DNA from: Eledone cirrhosa
Lineage: Eukaryota
Assembly (NCBI GenBank): GCA_964016885.1
Contig: OZ024743.1
Location: forward strand, 232,624,001-232,688,000
Length of the DNA: 64,000 nucleotides
Direction: 5' to 3'
The notes beneath the pieces were generated by a model, which worked only from the letters and a program-made list of their open reading frames with translations, was not told the DNA's origin and made no database searches. The position numbers were made by a program, and so were the translations under genes. The stretch's first letter is position 1. Each line of letters begins with the position of its first letter. Below, in pieces: positions 4,957 to 42,303 of the stretch.

Positions 4957-5513
4957 TATAGTAATAAACAAGAAAGACGGTCTCACTTATCCATCCCTAT
5001 TTATTTCATTATACGTATTTCGAAGACGTATGTTATTTGTTTAACATCAACCCTACGTGTTCTCATCAGATATAAGTCCACACGCGATGTAAAAATCCGT
5101 TGATATGCCGCCGGTCTTACAAGCTATTCACTTCAGCGACTGGCACGCATATGCCCAAACAAATTTCTAACTGTAGTCCTTATATGGGTGGGAGATATTT
5201 CAGTTGGCGTTCCTGTTTCGATATTTCAGTTGACGTTGCTGTTTGTGAACTGGCTAGCGTTTCAAGTTACCAGCTTGGCCGTTTAATTCTAAGTGAAGCA
5301 TGTATGAACCGTTAGTTCATTTTTTTTTCAGTGGCTGAAGTGAATAGCTCGTACGACCGGCAGCATATCAACAGATTTTTACATCTCGTGTGAACTTTTA
5401 GCTGATGAAAACAAGTAGGGCTGATGTTATATAAATGCCATACGTCTTCGAAATACATATAATAAAATGAATAGGGATGGGCAAGTGGAACCGTCTTTCT
5501 TGTTTATTACTAT
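4957..5513. mobile_element. Inverted-repeat PLE pseudo-LTR-like insert with a hammerhead in each arm
   Basis: Arms about 4957-5142 and 5329-5513 are diverged reverse complements. Each carries CTGATGA...cttcGAAAtac. The insert ends in (TA)n. Confidence 0.8.
5004..5075 (-). ncRNA. Type I hammerhead ribozyme with palindromic stem III
   Basis: ttatat-CTGATGA-gaacacgta...tacgtcttc-GAA-atacgtat-A-atgaaa. Stem II pairs at 8/9 positions and ATACGTAT is self-complementary. A second copy lies on + at about 5396-5466. Confidence 0.7.
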
Positions 5514-5521
5514 ATATATAT

Positions 5522-5911: not shown

Positions 5912-5917
<6 letters not shown>

Positions 5918-6043
5918 GAGTTAGGATCCCGACGGCTAAGCTCCGGCCGATTCGACAGCTAGATCCGAACTTACTACTGGCTTAGTTCGGATCTAGCTGT
6001 CGAAACGGCCGGAGTTCAGCCGTCGGGGTCCTGACTCTTCCCT
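5912..6043. repeat. About 130-bp fold-back palindrome
   Basis: cgacagctagatccgaact / agttcggatctagctgtcg inner arms. Shares gccgtcggggtc with 4745-4806. Confidence 0.9.
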
Positions 6044-6128
6044 ATTACCCACACTACTACCCTAAGTATCGAGTACTCTGGTGCGTTATGGTCCACCTGG
6101 TTTCTTACCACACCTTCTTCGTTATATA

Positions 6129-6160
<32 letters not shown>

Positions 6161-6161
<1 letters not shown>

Positions 6162-9100
6162 CACTGATGAGGGACTCATTTTATTACATGTTATCCATGC
6201 GCTACCTGCAGTATTTTTCTCCATATTTTATTACATATATTTACCCAAACTGCGATTCTGTGTTTTTCTCTCTCTCTCTTACTGTTCCCCCATTCTCTCT
6301 GTTTCTCCTACTTTCTTTCGCCCCCTCTGTCATGTCAGTTAGCTCTTCCTCACACTTTCACTCACTCACTGTTTCTCCTCTCTTCGCTTCATCCTGTACA
6401 CGACGAAAGCTATATTTTTCTCTCTTCTCACATGGCCCTCGTTCGTGTCAGGTCTTTTTTCTAAAGCGCTCATATATTCACCTAGCTTATGCTAAACAGA
6501 ATAATTATGAAGCTTGTTTCATTCCCCTATGGTTAGCTATACTCTTCGTTGTTCTCCTGTCTCACTCGCTTTACGCGTTTTAATTGTCCTAATAACTTAT
6601 TTTAGTTATTATTGCACCGACGTGAGGTATATGATTTTTAATGCAATGAAATATCTATGATCGTCGGCAAATCACTGATGAGGGACTCATTTTATTACAT
6701 GTTATCCATGCGCTACCTGCAGTATTTTTCTCCATATTTTATTACATATATTTACCCAAACTGCGATTCTGTGTTTTTCTCTCTCTCTCTTACTGTTCCC
6801 CCATTCTCTCTGTTTCTCCTACTTTCTTTCGCCCCCTCTGTCATGTCAGTTAGCTCTTCCTCACACTTTCATTCACTCACTGTTTCTCCTCTCTTCGCGT
6901 CATCCTGTACACGACGAAAGCTATATTTTTCTCTCTTCTCACATGGCCCTCGTTCGTGTCAGGTCTTTTTTCTAAAGCGCTCATATATTCACCTAGCTTA
7001 TGCTAAACAGAATAATTATGAAGCTTGTTTCATTCCCCTACGGTTAGCTATACTCTTCGTTGTTCTCCTGTCTCACTCGCTTTACGCGTTTTAATTGTCC
7101 TAATAACTTATTTTAGTTATTATTGCACCGACGTGAGGTATATGATTTTTAATGCAATGAAATATCTATGATCGTCGGCAAATCACTGATGAGGGACTCA
7201 TTTTATTACATGTTATCCATGCGCTACCTGCAGTATTTTTCTCCATATTTTATTACATATATTTACCCAAACTGCGATTCTGTGTTTTTCTCTCTCTCTC
7301 TTACTGTTCCCCCATTCTCTCTGTTTCTCCTACTTTCTTTCGCCCCCTCTGTCATGTCAGTTAGCTCTTCCTCACACTTTCACTCACTCACTGTTTCTCC
7401 TCTCTTCGCTTCATCCTGTACACGACGAAAGTTATATTTTTCTCTCTTCTCACATGGCCCTCGTTCGTGTCAGGTCTTTTTTCTAAAGCGCTCATATATT
7501 CACCTAGCTTATGCTAAACAGAATAATTATGAAGCTTGTTTCATTCCCCTACGGTTAGCTATACTCTTCGTTGTTCTCCTGTCTCACTCGCTTTACGCGT
7601 TTTAATTGTCCTAATAACTTATTTTAGTTATTATTGCACCGACGTGAGGTATATGATTTTTAATGCAATGAAATATCTATGATCGTCGGCAAATCACTGA
7701 TGAGGGACTCATTTTATTACATGTTATCCATGCGCTACCTGCAGTATTTTTCTCCATATTTTATTACATATATTTACCCAAACTGCGATTCTGTGTTTTT
7801 CTCTCTCTCTCTTACTGTTCCCCCATTCTCTCTGTTTCTCCTACTTTCTTTCGCCCCCTCTGTCATGTCAGTTAGCTCTTCCTCACACTTTCACTCACTC
7901 ACTGTTTCTCCTCTCTTCGCTTCATCCTGTACACGACGAAAGCTATATTTTTCTCTCTTCTCACATGGCCCTCGTTCGTGTCAGGTCTTTTTTCTAAAGC
8001 GCTCATATATTCACCTAGCTTATGCTAAACAGAATAATTATGAAGCTTGTTTCATTCCCCTATGGTTAGCTATACTCTTCGTTGTTCTCCTGTCTCACTC
8101 GCTTTACGCGTTTTAATTGTCCTAATAACTTATTTTAGTTATTATTGCACCGACGTGAGGTATATGATTTTTAATGCAATGAAATATCTATGATCGTCGG
8201 CAAATCACTGATGAGGGACTCATTTTATTACATGTTATCCATGCGCTACCTGCAGTATTTTTCTCCATATTTTATTACATATATTTACCCAAACTGCGAT
8301 TCTGTGTTTTTCTCTCTCTCTCTTACTGTTCCCCCATTCTCTCTGTTTCTCCTACTTTCTTTCGCCCCCTCTGTCATGTCAGTTAGCTCTTCCTCACACT
8401 TTCATTCACTCACTGTTTCTCCTCTCTTCGCGTCATCCTGTACACGACGAAAGCTATATTTTTCTCTCTTCTCACATGGCCCTCGTTCGTGTCAGGTCTT
8501 TTTTCTAAAGCGCTCATATATTCACCTAGCTTATGCTAAACAGAATAATTATGAAGCTTGTTTCATTCCCCTACGGTTAGCTATACTCTTCGTTGTTCTC
8601 CTGTCTCACTCGCTTTACGCGTTTTAATTGTCCTAATAACTTATTTTAGTTATTATTGCACCGACGTGAGGTATATGATTTTTAATGCAATGAAATATCT
8701 ATGATCGTCGGCAAATCACTGATGAGGGACTCATTTTATTACATGTTATCCATGCGCTACCTGCAGTATTTTTCTCCATATTTTATTACATATATTTACC
8801 CAAACTGCGATTCTGTGTTTTTCTCTCTCTCTCTTACTGTTCCCCCATTCTCTCTGTTTCTCCTACTTTCTTTCGCCCCCTCTGTCATGTCAGTTAGCTC
8901 TTCCTCACACTTTCACTCACTCACTGTTTCTCCTCTCTTCGCTTCATCCTGTACACGACGAAAGTTATATTTTTCTCTCTTCTCACATGGCCCTCGTTCG
9001 TGTCAGGTCTTTTTTCTAAAGCGCTCATATATTCACCTAGCTTATGCTAAACAGAATAATTATGAAGCTTGTTTCATTCCCCTACGGTTAGCTATACTCT

Positions 9101-10788
9101 TCGTTGTTCTCCTGTCTCACTCGCTTTACGCGTTTTAATTGTCCTAATAACTTATTTTAGTTATTATTGCACCGACGTGAGGTATATGATTTTTAATGCA
9201 ATGAAATATCTATGATCGTCGGCAAATCACTGATGAGGGACTCATTTTATTACATGTTATCCATGCGCTACCTGCAGTATTTTTCTCCATATTTTATTAC
9301 ATATATTTACCCAAACTGCGATTCTGTGTTTTTCTCTCTCTCTCTTACTGTTCCCCCATTCTCTCTGTTTCTCCTACTTTCTTTCGCCCCCTCTGTCATG
9401 TCAGTTAGCTCTTCCTCACACTTTCACTCACTCACTGTTTCTCCTCTCTTCGCTTCATCCTGTACACGACGAAAGCTATATTTTTCTCTCTTCTCACATG
9501 GCCCTCGTTCGTGTCAGGTCTTTTTTCTAAAGCGCTCATATATTCACCTAGCTTATGCTAAACAGAATAATTATGAAGCTTGTTTCATTCCCCTATGGTT
9601 AGCTATACTCTTCGTTGTTCTCCTGTCTCACTCGCTTTACGCGTTTTAATTGTCCTAATAACTTATTTTAGTTATTATTGCACCGACGTGAGGTATATGA
9701 TTTTTAATGCAATGAAATATCTATGATCGTCGGCAAATCACTGATGAGGGACTCATTTTATTACATGTTATCCATGCGCTACCTGCAGTATTTTTCTCCA
9801 TATTTTATTACATATATTTACCCAAACTGCGATTCTGTGTTTTTCTCTCTCTCTCTTACTGTTCCCCCATTCTCTCTGTTTCTCCTACTTTCTTTCGCCC
9901 CCTCTGTCATGTCAGTTAGCTCTTCCTCACACTTTCATTCACTCACTGTTTCTCCTCTCTTCGCGTCATCCTGTACACGACGAAAGCTATATTTTTCTCT
10001 CTTCTCACATGGCCCTCGTTCGTGTCAGGTCTTTTTTCTAAAGCGCTCATATATTCACCTAGCTTATGCTAAACAGAATAATTATGAAGCTTGTTTCATT
10101 CCCCTACGGTTAGCTATACTCTTCGTTGTTCTCCTGTCTCACTCGCTTTACGCGTTTTAATTGTCCTAATAACTTATTTTAGTTATTATTGCACCGACGT
10201 GAGGTATATGATTTTTAATGCAATGAAATATCTATGATCGTCGGCAAATCACTGATGAGGGACTCATTTTATTACATGTTATCCATGCGCTACCTGCAGT
10301 ATTTTTCTCCATATTTTATTACATATATTTACCCAAACTGCGATTCTGTGTTTTTCTCTCTCTCTCTTACTGTTCCCCCATTCTCTCTGTTTCTCCTACT
10401 TTCTTTCGCCCCCTCTGTCATGTCAGTTAGCTCTTCCTCACACTTTCACTCACTCACTGTTTCTCCTCTCTTCGCTTCATCCTGTACACGACGAAAGTTA
10501 TATTTTTCTCTCTTCTCACATGGCCCTCGTTCGTGTCAGGTCTTTTTTCTAAAGCGCTCATATATTCACCTAGCTTATGCTAAACAGAATAATTATGAAG
10601 CTTGTTTCATTCCCCTACGGTTAGCTATACTCTTCGTTGTTCTCCTGTCTCACTCGCTTTACGCGTTTTAATTGTCCTAATAACTTATTTTAGTTATTAT
10701 TGCACCGACGTGAGGTATATGATTTTTAATGCAATGAAATATCTATGATCGTCGGCAAATCACTGATGAGGGACTCATTTTATTACAT
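6161..10788 (+). mobile_element. Tandem array of 9 x 511-bp units plus 29-bp terminal redundancy, inserted in (TA)n; retrozyme/PLE pseudo-LTR-like
   Basis: Unit starts at 6161, 6672, 7183, 7694, 8205, 8716, 9227, 9738 and 10249, with partial unit 10760-10788 (tcactgatgagggactcattttattacat). (TA)n on both sides. Each unit contains CTGATGAG and GAAA motifs. The tandem structure is certain; the mobile-element call is inferred. Confidence 0.8.
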
Positions 10789-16351: not shown

Positions 16352-16559
16352 CGTTTCTGAATTTGTTTAGCAAGATTCTTTATCTGAAAACGTGTGTTGA
16401 AACCGATATTGTTATACTTTGGGAGGGTCAAGTTTCCAATAAGAAACACACGCACCAGTTGCTTTCACTTCAATTTATTATAATAAATTTATAAATTTAG
16501 GAATTTATAAATTTCCGGTTGGTGGGTTGGTTCCACAACCAGATAGTTGTTTATATATT

Positions 16560-16602
16560 GTCAAAGTTCTTTCGTCACATATTCTGTGACATCTTCAGTG
16601 AC
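16560..16602 (-). ncRNA. Minimal type I hammerhead ribozyme (PLE)
   Basis: gtca-CTGAAGA-t-gtcaca-gaata-tgtgac-GAA-ag-aa-ct-T-tgac. Stem I 4 bp, stem II 6 bp, vestigial stem III. Confidence 0.8.
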
Positions 16603-16802
16603 TGGGGTTCTTTTCTTTGTTTTTGTGCCTCTCCTTTGTTCTGTCCTACGCCATCTTGTTTCTGTGTGTGTGTTGTGTGCTCAGTCTGCGCATGCGCCAC
16701 ATCCGGGTGTCTGTGTGTGTTTATATTCGTTTATTTATTTGTTTATTTACATGTTACTGGTTAGTTGTTTGTTCTATGTGCGTGTGTGTTTTCATTTTGT
16801 CC

Positions 16803-17491
16803 TTAATTGTAAGTTGTGATGTTGCTGTTCCACTCATGTCTTCTATTTAATTTTGGTTGTGATTCTTTTATCTTTATTGCCTCTGTGATTTGTCTAAACA
16901 TTGCGTCATTTCTGTGTGTAGATTCTATTTTTATTTCTATGTTCTCTAATTTACCCTTATGTTCTATTTTAGCATGTTGGTAGAGTACAGATGATTCATT
17001 ACTATCTTGAAGGTCTCGCCAGTCTTCATTTATCCGTTCCCCTATACTACGAGCTGTCTCACCTATGTACACTATATTTTTATCTCCACATTGTCCTTCA
17101 GTACATCTTATGCTATATACTACATTTCTAGTTTTACAGTTTATATGGGGGCTTAATTTACAGGTTATACATTTCTTAACTATACAGGGGTCTTTGAAAA
17201 GGGTATGTCTTGCTAATAAGTGTTTTTATGGAGGTACCTGGTCTTTCTACTATCTTAATATTGAGTTTATGTTTATCTAGGGCCCTTCTAAATTTGTAAG
17301 CTAATTCACCTCTAGGGGATGTATCGATGAACATTACACTCTGGTATTTATTGCTATCATACCATGAGTTTATTCTATTAGCCTTATTCCTAGTTCTTTC
17401 TATTCTATTCCAAAATTTGCTCCTATACAAGGGGCAGGTCCCATTTGTGTCATTATTTACCATTTTTTCGCATTTGGTTCTGGCTCCTCTA
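16803..17491 (-). pseudogene. PLE ORF 3' part (linker + GIY-YIG endonuclease), inverted copy, frameshifted
   Basis: Cys-rich linker, then NVVYSIRC...YIGETARSIGERINE...SVLYQHAKIEH...RQITEAIKI...PKLNRRHEW. Confidence 0.9.
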
Positions 17492-18410
17492 AAACAAATC
17501 CTCCATTCCCATTATGCCAAACCCATGACTTCCAAATATCTGATCCACCGAAACTCAGCTGTTTCGGACCATACCAAAATCAACATACTGATTGTGGATT
17601 TGGTACGGGTGATGAGAAACGTGTCCCGCATGTGCAACCCGAAGAACTAGAGAAACACATACAACACTTCATCCACCGTATGCAGTTCTCTGGTTACAAT
17701 CAGAGAGATAAAATCAGAGTGTATAGAGAAGCCAGAACCAAATGGAAAAAAATGGTAAATAATGACACAAATGGGACCTGCCCCTTGTATAGGAGCAAAT
17801 TTTGGAATAGAATAGAAAGAACTAGGAATAAGGCTAATAGAATAAACTCATGGTATGATAGCAATAAATACCAGAGTGTAATGTTCATCGATACAACCCC
17901 TAGAGGTGAATTAGCTTACAAATTTAGAAGGGCCCTAGATAAACATAAACTCAATATTAAGATAGTAGAAAGACCAGGTACCTCCATAAAAACACTTATT
18001 AGCAAGACATACCCTTTTCAAAGACCCCCTGTATAGTTAAGAAATGTATAACCTGTAAATTAAGCCCCCATATAAACTGTAAAACTAGAAATGTAGTATA
18101 TAGCATAAGATGTACTGATGGACAATGTAGAGATAAAAATATAGTGTACATAGATGAGACAGCTCGTAGTATAGGGGAACGGATAAATGAAGACTGGCGA
18201 GACCTTCAAGATAGTAAAGAATCATCTGTACTCTACCAACATGCTAAAATAGAACAAGGATAAATTAGAGAACATAGAAATAAAAATAGAATCTACACAC
18301 AGAAAAGACGCAATGTTTAGACAAATCACAGAGGCAATAAACATAAAAGAATTACAACCAAAATTAAATAGAAAACATGAGTGGAACAGCAACATCACAA
18401 CTTACAATTA
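17492..18410 (+). pseudogene. PLE ORF 3' part (RT thumb, linker, GIY-YIG), frameshifted
   Basis: HYAKPMTSKYLIHRNSA...RVMRNVS...FIHRMQFSGY...PLYRSKFW...FIDTTPRGEL...KIVERPGTSIK, then a decayed GIY-YIG (YIDETARS). Frameshifts near 17635, 18025 and 18258. Confidence 0.9.
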
Positions 18411-18612
18411 AGGACAAAATGAAAACACACACGCACATAGAACAAACAACCAACCAGTAACATGTAAATAAACAAATAAATAAACGAATATAAACACACA
18501 CAGACACCCGGATGTGGCGCATGCGCAGACTGAGCACACAACACACACACAGAAACAAGATGGCGTAGGACAGAACAAAGGAGAGGCACAAAAACAAATA
18601 AAAGAATCCCCA

Positions 18613-18655
18613 GTCACTGAAGAGATCACAGAATATGTGACGAAAGAACTTTGAC
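18613..18655 (+). ncRNA. Minimal type I hammerhead ribozyme (PLE)
   Basis: gtca-CTGAAGA-gatcaca-gaata-tgtgac-GAA-ag-aa-ct-T-tgac. Predicted cleavage 3' of 18651. Confidence 0.78.
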
Positions 18656-18939
18656 AATATATAAACAACCATCTGGTTGTGGAACCAACCAACCAACCGG
18701 AAATTTATAAATTCCTAAATTTATAAATTTATTATAATAAATTGAAGTGAAAGCAACTGGTGCGTGTGTTTCTTATTGGCAACTTGACCCTCCCAAAGTA
18801 TAACAATATATATATATATATATATATATATTTAACGAAGGGTATAAATAAGAAATAGTTATTGTTAGATGGATTAACAAAGTTGTTAGATGTAATAACA
18901 AGAATAAAAATTTAGTTTATATATGGTTTACTTCACATG

Positions 18940-24145: not shown

Positions 24146-24325
24146 GAAGTCATCGGATATATATAGTTGTGATGGAGGTATAGTCAATATTGGGCCTTTG
24201 AAACCTTAGATAGTGTTTCTGCTCCGAAATACCAATGAAAGTTGGAAGTTGGAAGATCACTGATGAAGGACTAATTTTATTCATATGTAACCCATGTGCA
24301 ACCACGCAGCTCTCCATTTTTCTAA

Positions 24326-24330
<5 letters not shown>
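24145..24330 (+). mobile_element. Diverged single-copy relative of the 511-bp unit, in (TA)n
   Basis: atcactgatgaaggactaattttattcatatgtaacccatgtgcaacc aligns with atcactgatgagggactcattttattacatgttatccatgcgctacc. The upstream gaggtata...gaaatac arrangement is also shared. Confidence 0.7.
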
Positions 24331-27995: not shown

Positions 27996-28585
27996 TACAT
28001 GCCAAACTGTACAGGCAACACCATCAAAGCAATCAACGGCAGTGATATCAACCAAGTCAAGGATTTCAAGTATCTTGACTCCTGGATAATGGACTCTGAG
28101 AAGGATTTCGCAACCAGAAAGGCCCAAGCATGGTCATCTTGCAACAAGATGGATCGAGTGTGGCGCTCAAATCTTTCCAATCACACCAAGATCAGACTCT
28201 TCCAATCTTGCTATATGGAAGTGAACCATGGACGCTTTCATCCAAACAACAAAAGCACCTTGATGGCACTTACACTCGCATGCTTCAACGCATTCAGGAC
28301 ATAAGCTGGGGACATCTGCCTTTGAGAGAGATATATGCCGGCCTCCCACGCATATCTGTCGTTGTACGTAAAAGGAGAGTAAGATTTGCTGGCCACTGCC
28401 ATCGTGCCATCTACAATGATGTGTCCCCATTAGTGCTTTGGAAACCACAAGCAGTGATTAATAACAGGGGGCGCAATTTCTCCTACTCCGATGTCATCAC
28501 CAGAGATTCTGATAATGAACGACAGACCCACGTGGAGATCAATTGTTGAGTCCATTTCGACTGAGGCCGCCGGATGATGATGATG
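27996..28585 (+). mobile_element. 5'-truncated RTE-clade LINE with (GAT)n tail and TSD
   Basis: VKDFKYLDSWI...RKAQAWSSCNKMDRVWRS...LLYGSEPWTL...LDGTYTRML...RVRFAGHCHR, with a frameshift. Tail (gat)4. TSD aatagag at 27989-27995 and 28586-28592. Confidence 0.9.
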
Positions 28586-31040: not shown

Positions 31041-31897
31041 TGCAAGGATTTTGACATGAAATCGTGTGTCTAAACAAATATTGTTTTGCTTGGGGAGGGT
31101 CATATTGTTATAATAATATTGCCAGAATTATTAACAGAACACACTCACTGTTTGGTTGGTTTTCGCTTCTGTATCTTTTATATCAGTTAATTTATACGGT
31201 CCTCAATGTTTACCATTGCCTGACCAACGGTCAGTCAATGGTAAACATCGTCAGTGGTGCTATTATGTTTCCTCTTGTTGTATTGTATGTCTACGCCATC
31301 TTTATTTAATCTGTCTATTTATTTATTTATTTATTGTTTTATTGTTTGCTAAACAGAAAAAAATGAATGGAATAACAACAACACCCAAACAAACAATACT
31401 GACCTAAGAGAAATATAAATAAATAAATAAATATATACACGAGCACAATAACAACAAACACATATAAGCACACACTAGTAAACTAAGATAGAATACAATA
31501 ACCAAAACAGTCACTCTAACGCGAACACACATCAAACACTATACACACACGCAAACGCAGGCGCAGAGAAGAAGACAAAAATAAATAAATAAATAAATAG
31601 ACAGATTAAATAAAGTTGGCGTAGACATGCAATACAACAGGAAGAAACATAATAGCACCACTGACGATGTTGCAGATGTGCAACGAAAGAACTGTGTTAG
31701 ACTATATATATGTGTTTGTGTCTATATTATATCTGTATTTTTTACCGTTGGTCTGTCAATGGTAAACTTTGAGGACCGAATAAATTAACTGATATAAAAG
31801 ATACAGAAGCGAAAACCAACCAAACAGTGAGTGTGTTCTGTTATTAATTCTGGCAATATTATTATAACAATATGACCCTCCCCAAGTATAACAATAT
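31041..31897. mobile_element. Non-coding fold-back PLE pseudo-LTR insert related to the 16.3-18.8 kb element
   Basis: Arms about 31078-31330 and 31580-31897 are reverse complements. The 3' end tgaccctccccaagtataacaatat|(TA)n is nearly identical to 18785-18809. Carries an HHR. Confidence 0.85.
31657..31698 (+). ncRNA. Minimal hammerhead motif, probably inactivated
   Basis: acca-CTGACGA-t-gttgca-gatg-tgcaac-GAA-ag-aa-ct-G-tgtt. Same layout as 18613-18655 with a different stem II. Position 17 is G. Confidence 0.7.
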
Positions 31898-31993
31898 ATA
31901 TATATATATATATAGCAGATGATTCAGGAAATTTCGAGCATGTGCACCCCAACGCCTATGGCAATAATGACAGGCGATCATTATAAATAATAG

Positions 31994-40882: not shown

Positions 40883-41024
40883 ATATTTATTAAAAATAAC
40901 AGATTAAAGTTTAAGCAAAGAATCGCTGTTTTCCCCCTTAACGGGATCTTCTTAGTTAGTCTCAGAAGATCCCGTTAAGGGTGAAAGCAGCGATTCTTTG
41001 CTTAAACTTTAATCTGTTATTTTA

Positions 41025-41032
<8 letters not shown>
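40883..41032. repeat. 150-bp fold-back palindrome adjoining (TA)n
   Basis: Centre gggatcttct-tagttagtctc-agaagatccc. A single-arm homologue lies at 21517-21590. Confidence 0.9.
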
Positions 41033-41106
<74 letters not shown>

Positions 41107-41128
41107 TGTATATATGTATACTATATAT

Positions 41129-42303
41129 GTTGGTGTCTCTGGAAGGTTACTACAGTGGATCAAATGTTTCCTGACAGGCAGAACCCAGCATGTTGTAGTC
41201 GAAGGAGTAAAATCAAGCCCTGCCAAAGTCAGCAGTGGCGTCCCACAACGCACTGTGTTGGGTCCACTTCTTTTCATCGTCTACATTAATGACATTACTG
41301 ACATCATCAAACACAGCAACATCAGAATCTTCGCAGATGATTCCAAGCTCCAAAGGGTCATCAATGAGGTGGGTGACCGGACTTGCCTTCAGTCAGACCT
41401 ACTGGCTGTTATCCAATGGGCAGAAATGAATAATATGCTGTTGAATGAGGATAAATTTGAACTAATCCACTTTGGAAAAAAGGATGCCCTGAAACTACCA
41501 TACTCTCTTCCTTCGGGTGAAACTCTAATGGCTTCCAATAACATCAGAGACCTGGGAGTAATTGTGGACAACAATATAAGCTGGGCCACTCATATAAACA
41601 CCAAAGTTGATATGGCCCGCAGAATGTGTTCCTGGATTCTCAGAACATTCCAGTCGAGAGATATCCACACTGTTGTCCTTCTCTTCTCTACCTTTGCGCC
41701 CCCCACCTTGAATACTGTTGTCCACTGTGGTCATCCCACACGAAACAAAGTATCATGAAAGTTGAAGCAGAACAAAGGTCAATTACAAAAAAGATAGTTG
41801 GCATGACAGGCCGTGACTATTGGGGTCGATTAGAAAAGCTCAAACTTTATTCTCTTCAACGTCGCCGTGAGCGTTACATTATCTGCATGATGTGGAAAAT
41901 ATACCATCAGCTTAGCCCAAATTATGTTGGCATCACCTTTAGTGTACACCCGAGGCTTGGGCCCCGTGCTATTCGCTCACGACAGAAATCCCACTCGCAT
42001 CACATAACAACAATACGGCAACAATTATTTCACCTTAATTGGCCCTGCACTCTTTAACATTACACCAAAACACATCAAAGCAGAGACAGACCCCATCCAG
42101 TTCAAGAAGACTTTGGATAAATTCCTTCAAGAAATCCCGGATAGGCCTCCTACACCCGGATATGCCTCCGTAAAAAATAACTCTCTGCTCGAGTGGGCCA
42201 TGGTGCCCAAACACTGATTTGTAAGACTTCGCCAGGTGGTGGTATTAAGTTAGACAAGGCCTTGGCCAATACTGGCCGAAACCTATCAAAGTTATCAAAG
42301 TTA
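41129..42303 (+). mobile_element. 5'-truncated CR1/L2-group LINE (RT C-terminal half), one frameshift, in (TA)n
   Basis: SGVPQRTVLGPLLF, FADDSK, KFELIHFG, RDLGV; frameshift near 41700; then PHLEYCCPLWS, LYSLQRRRERY. Tail (tatcaaagt)2. Confidence 0.93.

Follow-up and report, generated by a model that had tools for sequence, protein, structure and literature searches.

A 64,000-nt stretch of the Eledone cirrhosa genome (assembly GCA_964016885.1, contig OZ024743.1, positions 232,624,001 to 232,688,000, forward strand), called the window in what follows, is rich in microsatellites and carries a tandem array of 511-bp units at 6160-10788; the host genome measures 3.0 Gb. Each junction between units probably forms a hammerhead ribozyme with several pseudoknots, in which the conserved blocks stand in the order Site, GAAA, CUGAnGA (type SGC, a known rare non-circular permutation of the hammerhead). 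It would cut itself after A6631 and likely act as the 3'-end ribozyme of a non-autonomous Penelope-like element (PLE) of the Naiad type. Self-cleavage at the A6631 site, taken as a prediction of its own, is highly likely.

The pairings and core blocks that a first-pass annotation had picked out at one such junction are all present, and the motif recurs in 9/9 complete junctions of the array. On the + strand, where all parts of the motif lie, block S (6626-6637) consists of a stem III strand (GGTAT, 6626-6630), H17 (A6631, in an AUA triplet) and a stem I strand (TGATTT, 6632-6637). Block G (6642-6655) holds the 3' strand of a helix named IIa (6642-6646), U11.1 (6647), G12-A13-A14 (GAA, 6648-6650) and the second stem III strand (ATATC, 6651-6655). 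Block C (6669-6686) holds the second stem I strand (AAATCA, 6669-6674), C3-A9 (CTGATGA, 6675-6681), G10.1 (6682) and the 3' strand of helix IIb (6683-6686). Stem III is prolonged by an extension in which CCGACG (6617-6622) pairs with CGTCGG (6662-6667). The predicted cut falls between 6631 and 6632, which fits the UA site proposed in that annotation. Within the unit the order is Site, GAAA, CUGAUGA and, as had been seen, none of the circular orders CGS, GSC and SCG of types I-III; it is the order named type SGC. Such an order is not impossible, since five type-SGC RNAs, out of 583 predicted in the metatranscriptome-seeded search that named the type (Eckert et al. 2023, PMC10085705), were shown to cleave at the predicted site, at 0.007-0.19 per min.

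The pattern of freedom is that of a hammerhead: catalytic positions are fixed, and N7 and H17 vary within hammerhead rules. The core C3 U4 G5 A6 N7 G8 A9 with G12 A13 A14 is invariant in 16/16 young copies, which were selected on the motif, and the U16.1-A15.1 pair is invariant in 15/15 rows of an alignment, A3, of 8 young copies and 7 copies of the older subfamily G. H17 is A or C according to subfamily (among 25 subfamily G copies, 23 have C, one T and one A). A tight pattern for blocks G and C matches the genome at 14,903 places, its reversed control at 2; among the first 100 matches listed, 13 have C at N7. In an unselected check, G5 is changed in 149 copies versus 14,903 intact; the new letters and the subfamilies are mixed, the copies scattered, and no subfamily is evident among the 100 of these changed copies listed. 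None of the 121 Rfam matches in the window at E up to 1 is to any hammerhead family, and a metagenome pattern scan for the motif gave 0 matches. A recurrent pattern match (GAAAGTAAC...CTGATGAGGGAC) was rejected as coding sequence of a LINE, and three further single matches were rejected as unrelated.

Comparison of subfamilies reveals seven helices within 6586-6686, i.e. 101 nt of one unit. The first-pass annotation had seen no good stem II; a stem II region does exist, with partner strands at 6586-6616, outside the segment then considered. Stem II proper is a single pair, G6682-U6647 (10.1-11.1), opening into a four-way junction of helices IIa, H and IIb. GGAC after CUGAUGA and TGCAA before GAAA each pair upstream, not with each other. 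In helix IIa, TTGCA (6612-6616) pairs with 6642-6646 and substitutes for the stem II 5' strand, and in helix IIb, GTCC (6586-6589) pairs with 6683-6686. Between these two 5' strands lies hairpin H (6590-6611; 8 bp and a 6-nt loop), an arm of the junction, which RNAfold predicts in 4/4 copies folded. Because stem II is reduced to the 10.1-11.1 pair opening into this junction, its 5' strand would come from upstream of the cut and not from behind CUGAUGA. The pair is G.U, A-U or G-C by subfamily and is kept in 15/16 young and 21/24 subfamily G rows; in subfamilies A and G its junction with IIb, H and IIa contains no unpaired base, and the linker between stem I and the stem II strand before GAAA is 4 nt. 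A stem II at the classic place was tried and rejected: neither the plain sequence, nor a version allowing one inserted base, nor the unit's other GAAA gave more than one pair.

Stem III and its extension are separated by an internal loop in which UGA (6623-6625) faces 6656-6661, a 3-nt bulge followed by GAU. Kink-turns, which are sharply bent and bind L7Ae/Snu13, have a 3-nt bulge and then tandem G.A and A.G pairs between two helices; the loop matches this consensus and may adopt the kinked geometry. In an alignment, A2, of the 16 young copies, 15/16 rows have the 3-nt bulge with tandem GA/GA, the GA of the non-bulged strand being present in 15/16 rows and the opposite GA in 16/16; in A3, 5/7 subfamily G rows have the full loop. 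Two decayed older families, E and F, keep, like subfamily G, the S-G-C order with different stems, and carry a 5-7 nt bulge at the same place in lieu of the kink-turn-type loop. Thus, what is conserved between stem III and its extension seems to be a bend.

The stems put forward in the first-pass annotation covary in alignments of the family. The copies in A2 were hand-picked to span subfamilies from the 86 distinct contexts, among 197, that pass a filter on stems I and III; across 34 pairs, 98.0% of 544 cells are paired (25-47% in slid controls), a fraction reached by 0/500 shuffles, and 11 pairs change on both sides. In A3, 92.4% of 330 cells are paired (slid controls 31-46%) and 17/22 pairs change on both sides, including 4/5 in stem III and 6/6 in stem I. 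The extension has 5/6 pairs changing on both sides, with 95.6% paired, and hairpin H, in A2, 3/8, with 93.8% paired. Double-sided change in helix IIa concerns 1/4 pairs in A2 and 2/5 in A3, its fifth pair holding in 6/15 rows. Helix IIb pairs in 16/16 young copies, none of which vary, and is replaced in subfamily G by a different 6-bp helix (132/148 cells paired). The stem I/III filter that the young rows had passed inflates their paired fraction for stems I and III. It has no such effect on paired changes from one subfamily to another, nor on the unfiltered count over all 25 subfamily G copies, in which 86-91% of cells are paired per helix. Dinucleotide-shuffled sequence from window positions 1-43000 (211.6 Mb) contains 6 matches to the core of a fold descriptor and 0 to the full seven-helix fold, which also has 0 matches in 20,000 motif shuffles. 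As the descriptor was drawn up after the sequence had been seen, covariation is the stronger test. Collectively, covariation in stems I and III, the extension, IIa and hairpin H, together with the validated precedent (PMC10085705), argues strongly for a pseudoknotted hammerhead, one of the possibilities first raised.

The array at 6160-10788 (+ strand) is a single insertion of subfamily A of a non-coding retroelement, 5'-truncated and flanked on both sides by (TA)n. It comprises 9 full units, with 4 variable columns among them, and a 3' stub; CTGATGA stands at 6164 and then every 511 nt up to 10763. A 171-nt junction query gave 1,153 first-look candidates in the genome; the 40 of them that were scored show 98-100% identity and are spread over many contigs. 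Unit length differs by subfamily (494, 511, ~514, 531, 617-637, 672 and 683-756 bp), the unit bodies of different subfamilies aligning at 67-84% only; the older subfamily G counts 330 candidates at 73-88% identity to the query. The first-pass annotation had cited a solo relative at 24176-24266 as keeping the block order. It is only a 5'-truncated subfamily B copy (24226-24328, + strand; blocks G and C and the tail, with a 7-nt duplication, 92% over 103 columns) that matches from GAAA on. Upstream of it, the 8-mer GAGGTATA is out of register (E 0.67), the descriptor has no match there, and this copy cannot fold the ribozyme. A ~90-kb subfamily A array on contig C1 (81,547,000-81,637,000) has the first stem I pair broken in many units, which is decay after local amplification. 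A single minus-strand copy of a further subfamily (locus positions 2650-2758) has the S-G-C order with other stem sequences.

Among 22 loci outside the window, 15 distinct insertions have a visible 3' end, and 15/15 stop at unit position 67-84, followed by a dinucleotide repeat, mostly (TA)n. In window numbering the 3' tail of the element spans 6687-6750 (+ strand): dispersed copies end at ~6745-6750, or at an earlier AU-rich look-alike at ~6700, and then run into (TA)n; the earlier site is used by the window array (at 10788) and by several other copies. The 5' ends of dispersed copies scatter across the unit, and many copies are partial tandems. Fixed 3' ends, scattered 5' ends and partial tandems are the signature of target-primed retroposition. 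Like non-LTR retrozymes (LTR, long terminal repeat; Cervera and de la Pena), the family consists of non-coding tandem units, each with a hammerhead. Partial tandems and fixed 3'/truncated 5' ends have been described for PLEs, and Naiads in particular prefer (TA)n targets (PMC8557442); the family shares (TA)n targets, partial tandems and fixed 3' with variable 5' ends with Naiads. The first-pass annotation had not recognised the element, probably a non-autonomous PLE related to Naiad. As the sole frame of the 511-bp unit is a low-complexity one of 150 aa, and the endonuclease-reverse transcriptase (EN-RT) open reading frame of Naiads (N-terminal GIY-YIG, C-terminal RT) is absent, the unit can at most be a non-autonomous Naiad derivative. 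One short repeat that ends in (TA)n is found 5' of the element at independent insertions (6060-6160 in the window and three other loci), which makes the tail of another repeat a frequent landing place for the family. A long palindromic hairpin resembling a miniature inverted-repeat transposable element lies immediately upstream of the array (5916-6040), and similar sequence occurs at unrelated loci.

Naiads have been described as lacking canonical hammerheads, eight being labelled 'HHR_half_core' and some HHR_core, with no structure given beside these labels (PMC8557442). The 3' ends of 18 of the 54 published Naiad consensus sequences (File S5, PMC8557442), the records being named via the header that follows each and the order of the metadata sheet, were compared by eye only. 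The S-G-C order is seen in 8/18 and the same junction in five. The ends of Naiad_Obim and Naiad_Ovul have block for block the same layout, with a TATTTT-loop hairpin and a kink-type loop, ~75 nt before the end. Those of 2_Movir and Plae form the same junction with unrelated stem sequences (in Plae AGAGG/CCTCT, an 8-bp hairpin, GGCCCC/GGGGCC and a GUA site), and the end of Esco a looser version of it with different stems. Ptep, Lpol and Sdum show the S-G-C order with stems I and III of 6-10 bp and build stem II in other ways; the Sdum sequence is UUGAAAA, where U3-A8 replaces C3-G8 in a compensated swap. The ends without the motif are those of three oyster Naiads, Skow-1, 1_Movir, Asuum, Smim, the incomplete Omin, Adux and Dcar. 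In Smim, CUGAnGA precedes GAAA, as it does in nematode snippets. The oyster Naiads CGi, Sglo and Olur share another highly conserved, apparently structured 3' untranslated region without CUGAnGA, which may be another RNA element (PMC8557442, File S5).

It is tempting to propose how such a ribozyme would serve the element. Stems I and III would form as in any hammerhead, and stem II would be the 10.1-11.1 pair opening into the four-way junction IIa/H/IIb; closure of the short linkers would be made possible by the kink-turn-type loop (a plain bulge in the older families), at which stem III would turn back. When partial tandems are transcribed by read-through, the ribozyme would cleave each unit once in cis and release RNAs of unit length, as has also been proposed for other PLEs and retrozymes. 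A Naiad RT/GIY-YIG protein acting in trans would open a nick in (TA)n and start copying at the AU-rich sites 70-120 nt downstream of the cut, which would account for the constant 3' ends, the 5' truncations and the formation of new tandems. Such start sites agree with the internal initiation that a Poseidon element was found to use (PMC11167929).

Several observations weigh against this interpretation. On the side of the fold, nested folding energy is unremarkable (RNAfold z -0.9 to -2.3), helix IIb shows no variation among the young subfamilies, and the independent changes that support helix IIa are few. The count of double changes alone is reached by 13/500 shuffles for A2 and 78/500 for A3, and the shuffle control overstates significance because the rows are related. 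U4 is C (CCGAUGA) in 9/25 subfamily G copies, of which some show additional decay of the CpG type. U4C also occurs in a natural viroid hammerhead that remains able to cleave. As to cleavage, 3' ends do not lie at the predicted cut, and the 5' junctions of subfamily J (100 rows listed) show no clear pile-up there, with 4/24 distinct loci at the cut and 9/24 at a TA microhomology 7 nt past it. No RNA run is listed among the sequencing runs that hold the sequence; of two runs examined through their contigs, one contains the family in abundance and the other hardly covers it. On the side of Naiads, 10.1 and 11.1 are unpaired in Obim, Ovul, Esco, 2_Movir and Plae, and the motif was not seen by eye in 10/18 ends, of which four are labelled incomplete or broken. 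Searches of the genome found broken Naiad remnants only and no intact Naiad: RT motif patterns (two variants) gave 0, 13 and 0 matches, and a 95-aa remnant query 145 matches with a longest open frame of 223 aa. A two-strand nhmmer scan linked the motif to Naiad remnants in none of 76 loci, some of them overlapping, and its two informative matches are separate insertions. The non-coding family is very young, though the Naiad remnants in the genome are broken. By eye, these remnants resemble the published Octopus Naiad, which suggests an octopus-like cephalopod as the host.

The fold could be real and yet function mainly as a recognition element for a retroelement protein, with little or protein-dependent cleavage. 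This is unlikely. It draws on the hammerhead of a Poseidon element, which cleaved only with protein and was dispensable for insertion in vitro (PMC11167929), a result that also counts against the proposed mechanism. The position of the 3' ends 70-120 nt downstream of the cut, the failure of 5' ends to mark it, the minimal stem II and the U4C change in part of subfamily G point the same way. However, the constant positions are the catalytic ones, N7 and H17 vary within hammerhead rules, and the Sdum swap, as read by eye, is compensated.

An alternative that leaves the ribozyme as described, and about equally improbable, is that a different PLE clade that targets (TA)n (Neptune- or Hydra-like), and not a Naiad, mobilises the family today. 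Copies on different chromosomes are 98-100% identical, yet the searches found decayed Naiad remnants only, and a PLE-like element with type-I-order hammerheads lies in (TA)n in the window itself (16406-18809). The layout of the motif nevertheless agrees with Naiad 3' ends and departs from the type I motifs that have been tabulated for Penelope and Hydra, and the searches for an autonomous partner spanned only two RT motif variants and one 95-aa query.

A third possibility, quite improbable, is that the helices form between neighbouring units or two molecules (a domain-swapped dimer), cleavage needing a tandem as in minimal Penelope hammerheads. Covariation cannot separate cis from trans, many copies are partial tandems, and small PLE hammerheads are reported to cleave as dimers. 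But Naiad_Ovul, listed without a pseudo-LTR, still has the motif, the nested helices are already predicted to form in a monomer, and every pairing partner lies within 101 nt (6586-6686), so that assembly across adjacent units, the other half of what the first-pass annotation had envisaged for a pseudoknotted or multimer-dependent ribozyme, is not needed. Its remaining proposal, a decayed ordinary hammerhead beside a chance CTGATGA, passively amplified in a satellite, agrees with the empty Rfam result and the missing classic stem II but is practically untenable given seven helices maintained through paired changes in several subfamilies, no full match in the 211.6 Mb of shuffles, and dispersed copies with signatures of retroposition.

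Other features of the window comprise further hammerhead-like and repetitive sequences. The element at 16406-18809 is an inverted-repeat Penelope-like remnant with hammerhead cores in type I order and a 6-bp stem II at 16598 (-) and 18617 (+); a GIY-YIG-like frame at 16803-17225 (-) was recognised by eye, with no Pfam match, and Pfam gave no useful match for three PLE-like fragments. A second inverted pair at 31071-31904 has a hammerhead core in type I order at 31661 (+) and a truncated one at 31254 (-), and a 186-nt inverted repeat at 4957-5514 carries CTGATGA at 5069 (-) and 5402 (+). Fragments of LINE-type RT frames, recognised by eye, lie at 28100-28549 and 41006-42057, and a 28-bp satellite of ~743 copies with strong strand skew fills 43296-63998.

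Among known systems, the closest in architecture are the type-SGC hammerheads (HRIMA-1 and variants; PMC10085705), which have the same order, an intact core and pseudoknotted stems I and III. In these, stem II is a helix next to CUGAnGA, whereas here it is one pair and a junction with upstream strands. Published SGC RNAs also have a further helix that joins stems I and II, of which none is seen here; helices IIb and H and the extension may fill its role. The linker between stem I and the stem II strand is typically 3 nt there and 4 nt here, and the kink-turn-type loop in stem III is a feature of the present unit by which it differs from published type-SGC RNAs. The latter were found on metatranscriptome contigs near hairpin ribozymes, whereas the host here is an animal retroelement. 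The text sections of that work and a term search of its supplement name no eukaryotic host, although its alignment files may hold eukaryotic matches.

By mode of propagation, the family resembles Naiad PLEs (Craig et al. 2021, PMC8557442), with which it shares, besides target preference, tandems and 5' truncation, the position of the motif near the 3' end, and from which it differs by the missing EN-RT frame. Type I hammerheads of Penelope/Poseidon, Neptune and Hydra PLEs likewise lie near the element 3' end and also tolerate a weak or pyrimidine-pyrimidine 10.1-11.1 (PMC8557442, File S2), but they have the circularly permuted order CUGAnGA-GAAA-site and no core pseudoknots, in contrast to the S-G-C order and pseudoknots found here. 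Non-LTR retrozymes are non-coding tandem units with one hammerhead each, derived from PLE pseudo-LTRs (Li et al. bioRxiv 10.64898/2026.07.22.740005); they are defined by a type I hammerhead and accumulate as circular RNA, whereas the present units, of 494-756 bp, carry an SGC one. The family would work like a type-SGC hammerhead and like a non-LTR retrozyme, but departs in one defining feature from each class: from type SGC, as no stem II helix follows CUGAnGA, and from retrozymes, as the hammerhead is not type I. A literature search, with subscription journals largely outside its coverage, found no description of an SGC hammerhead in Naiads or animals.

On balance, it seems rather likely from these comparisons that functional hammerheads of a non-circular permutation are present in many Naiads, from box jellyfish and acanthocephalans to chelicerates and cephalopods, and that in one lineage a fourth block, lying upstream, was used to rebuild stem II into a four-way junction, alongside a kink-turn in stem III; the scheme of six permutations does not cover such a topology. 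If so, eukaryotic genomes would have yielded their first ribozyme of this sort, a single animal would hold at least 15,000 copies of it, and the apparent absence of hammerheads in Naiads would be explained. That absence had been taken to suggest that hammerheads might merely parasitise PLEs (PMC8557442); a rearranged ribozyme, if Naiads did retain one, would make self-cleavage look like something that PLEs generally require. Non-circular permutation would move from rare environmental RNAs to abundant animal repeats, and CUGAnGA with its stem II strand would no longer be an indivisible block, as has been assumed (PMC10085705). Since descriptors of types I-III and Rfam miss this ribozyme, animal genomes probably hold many more.

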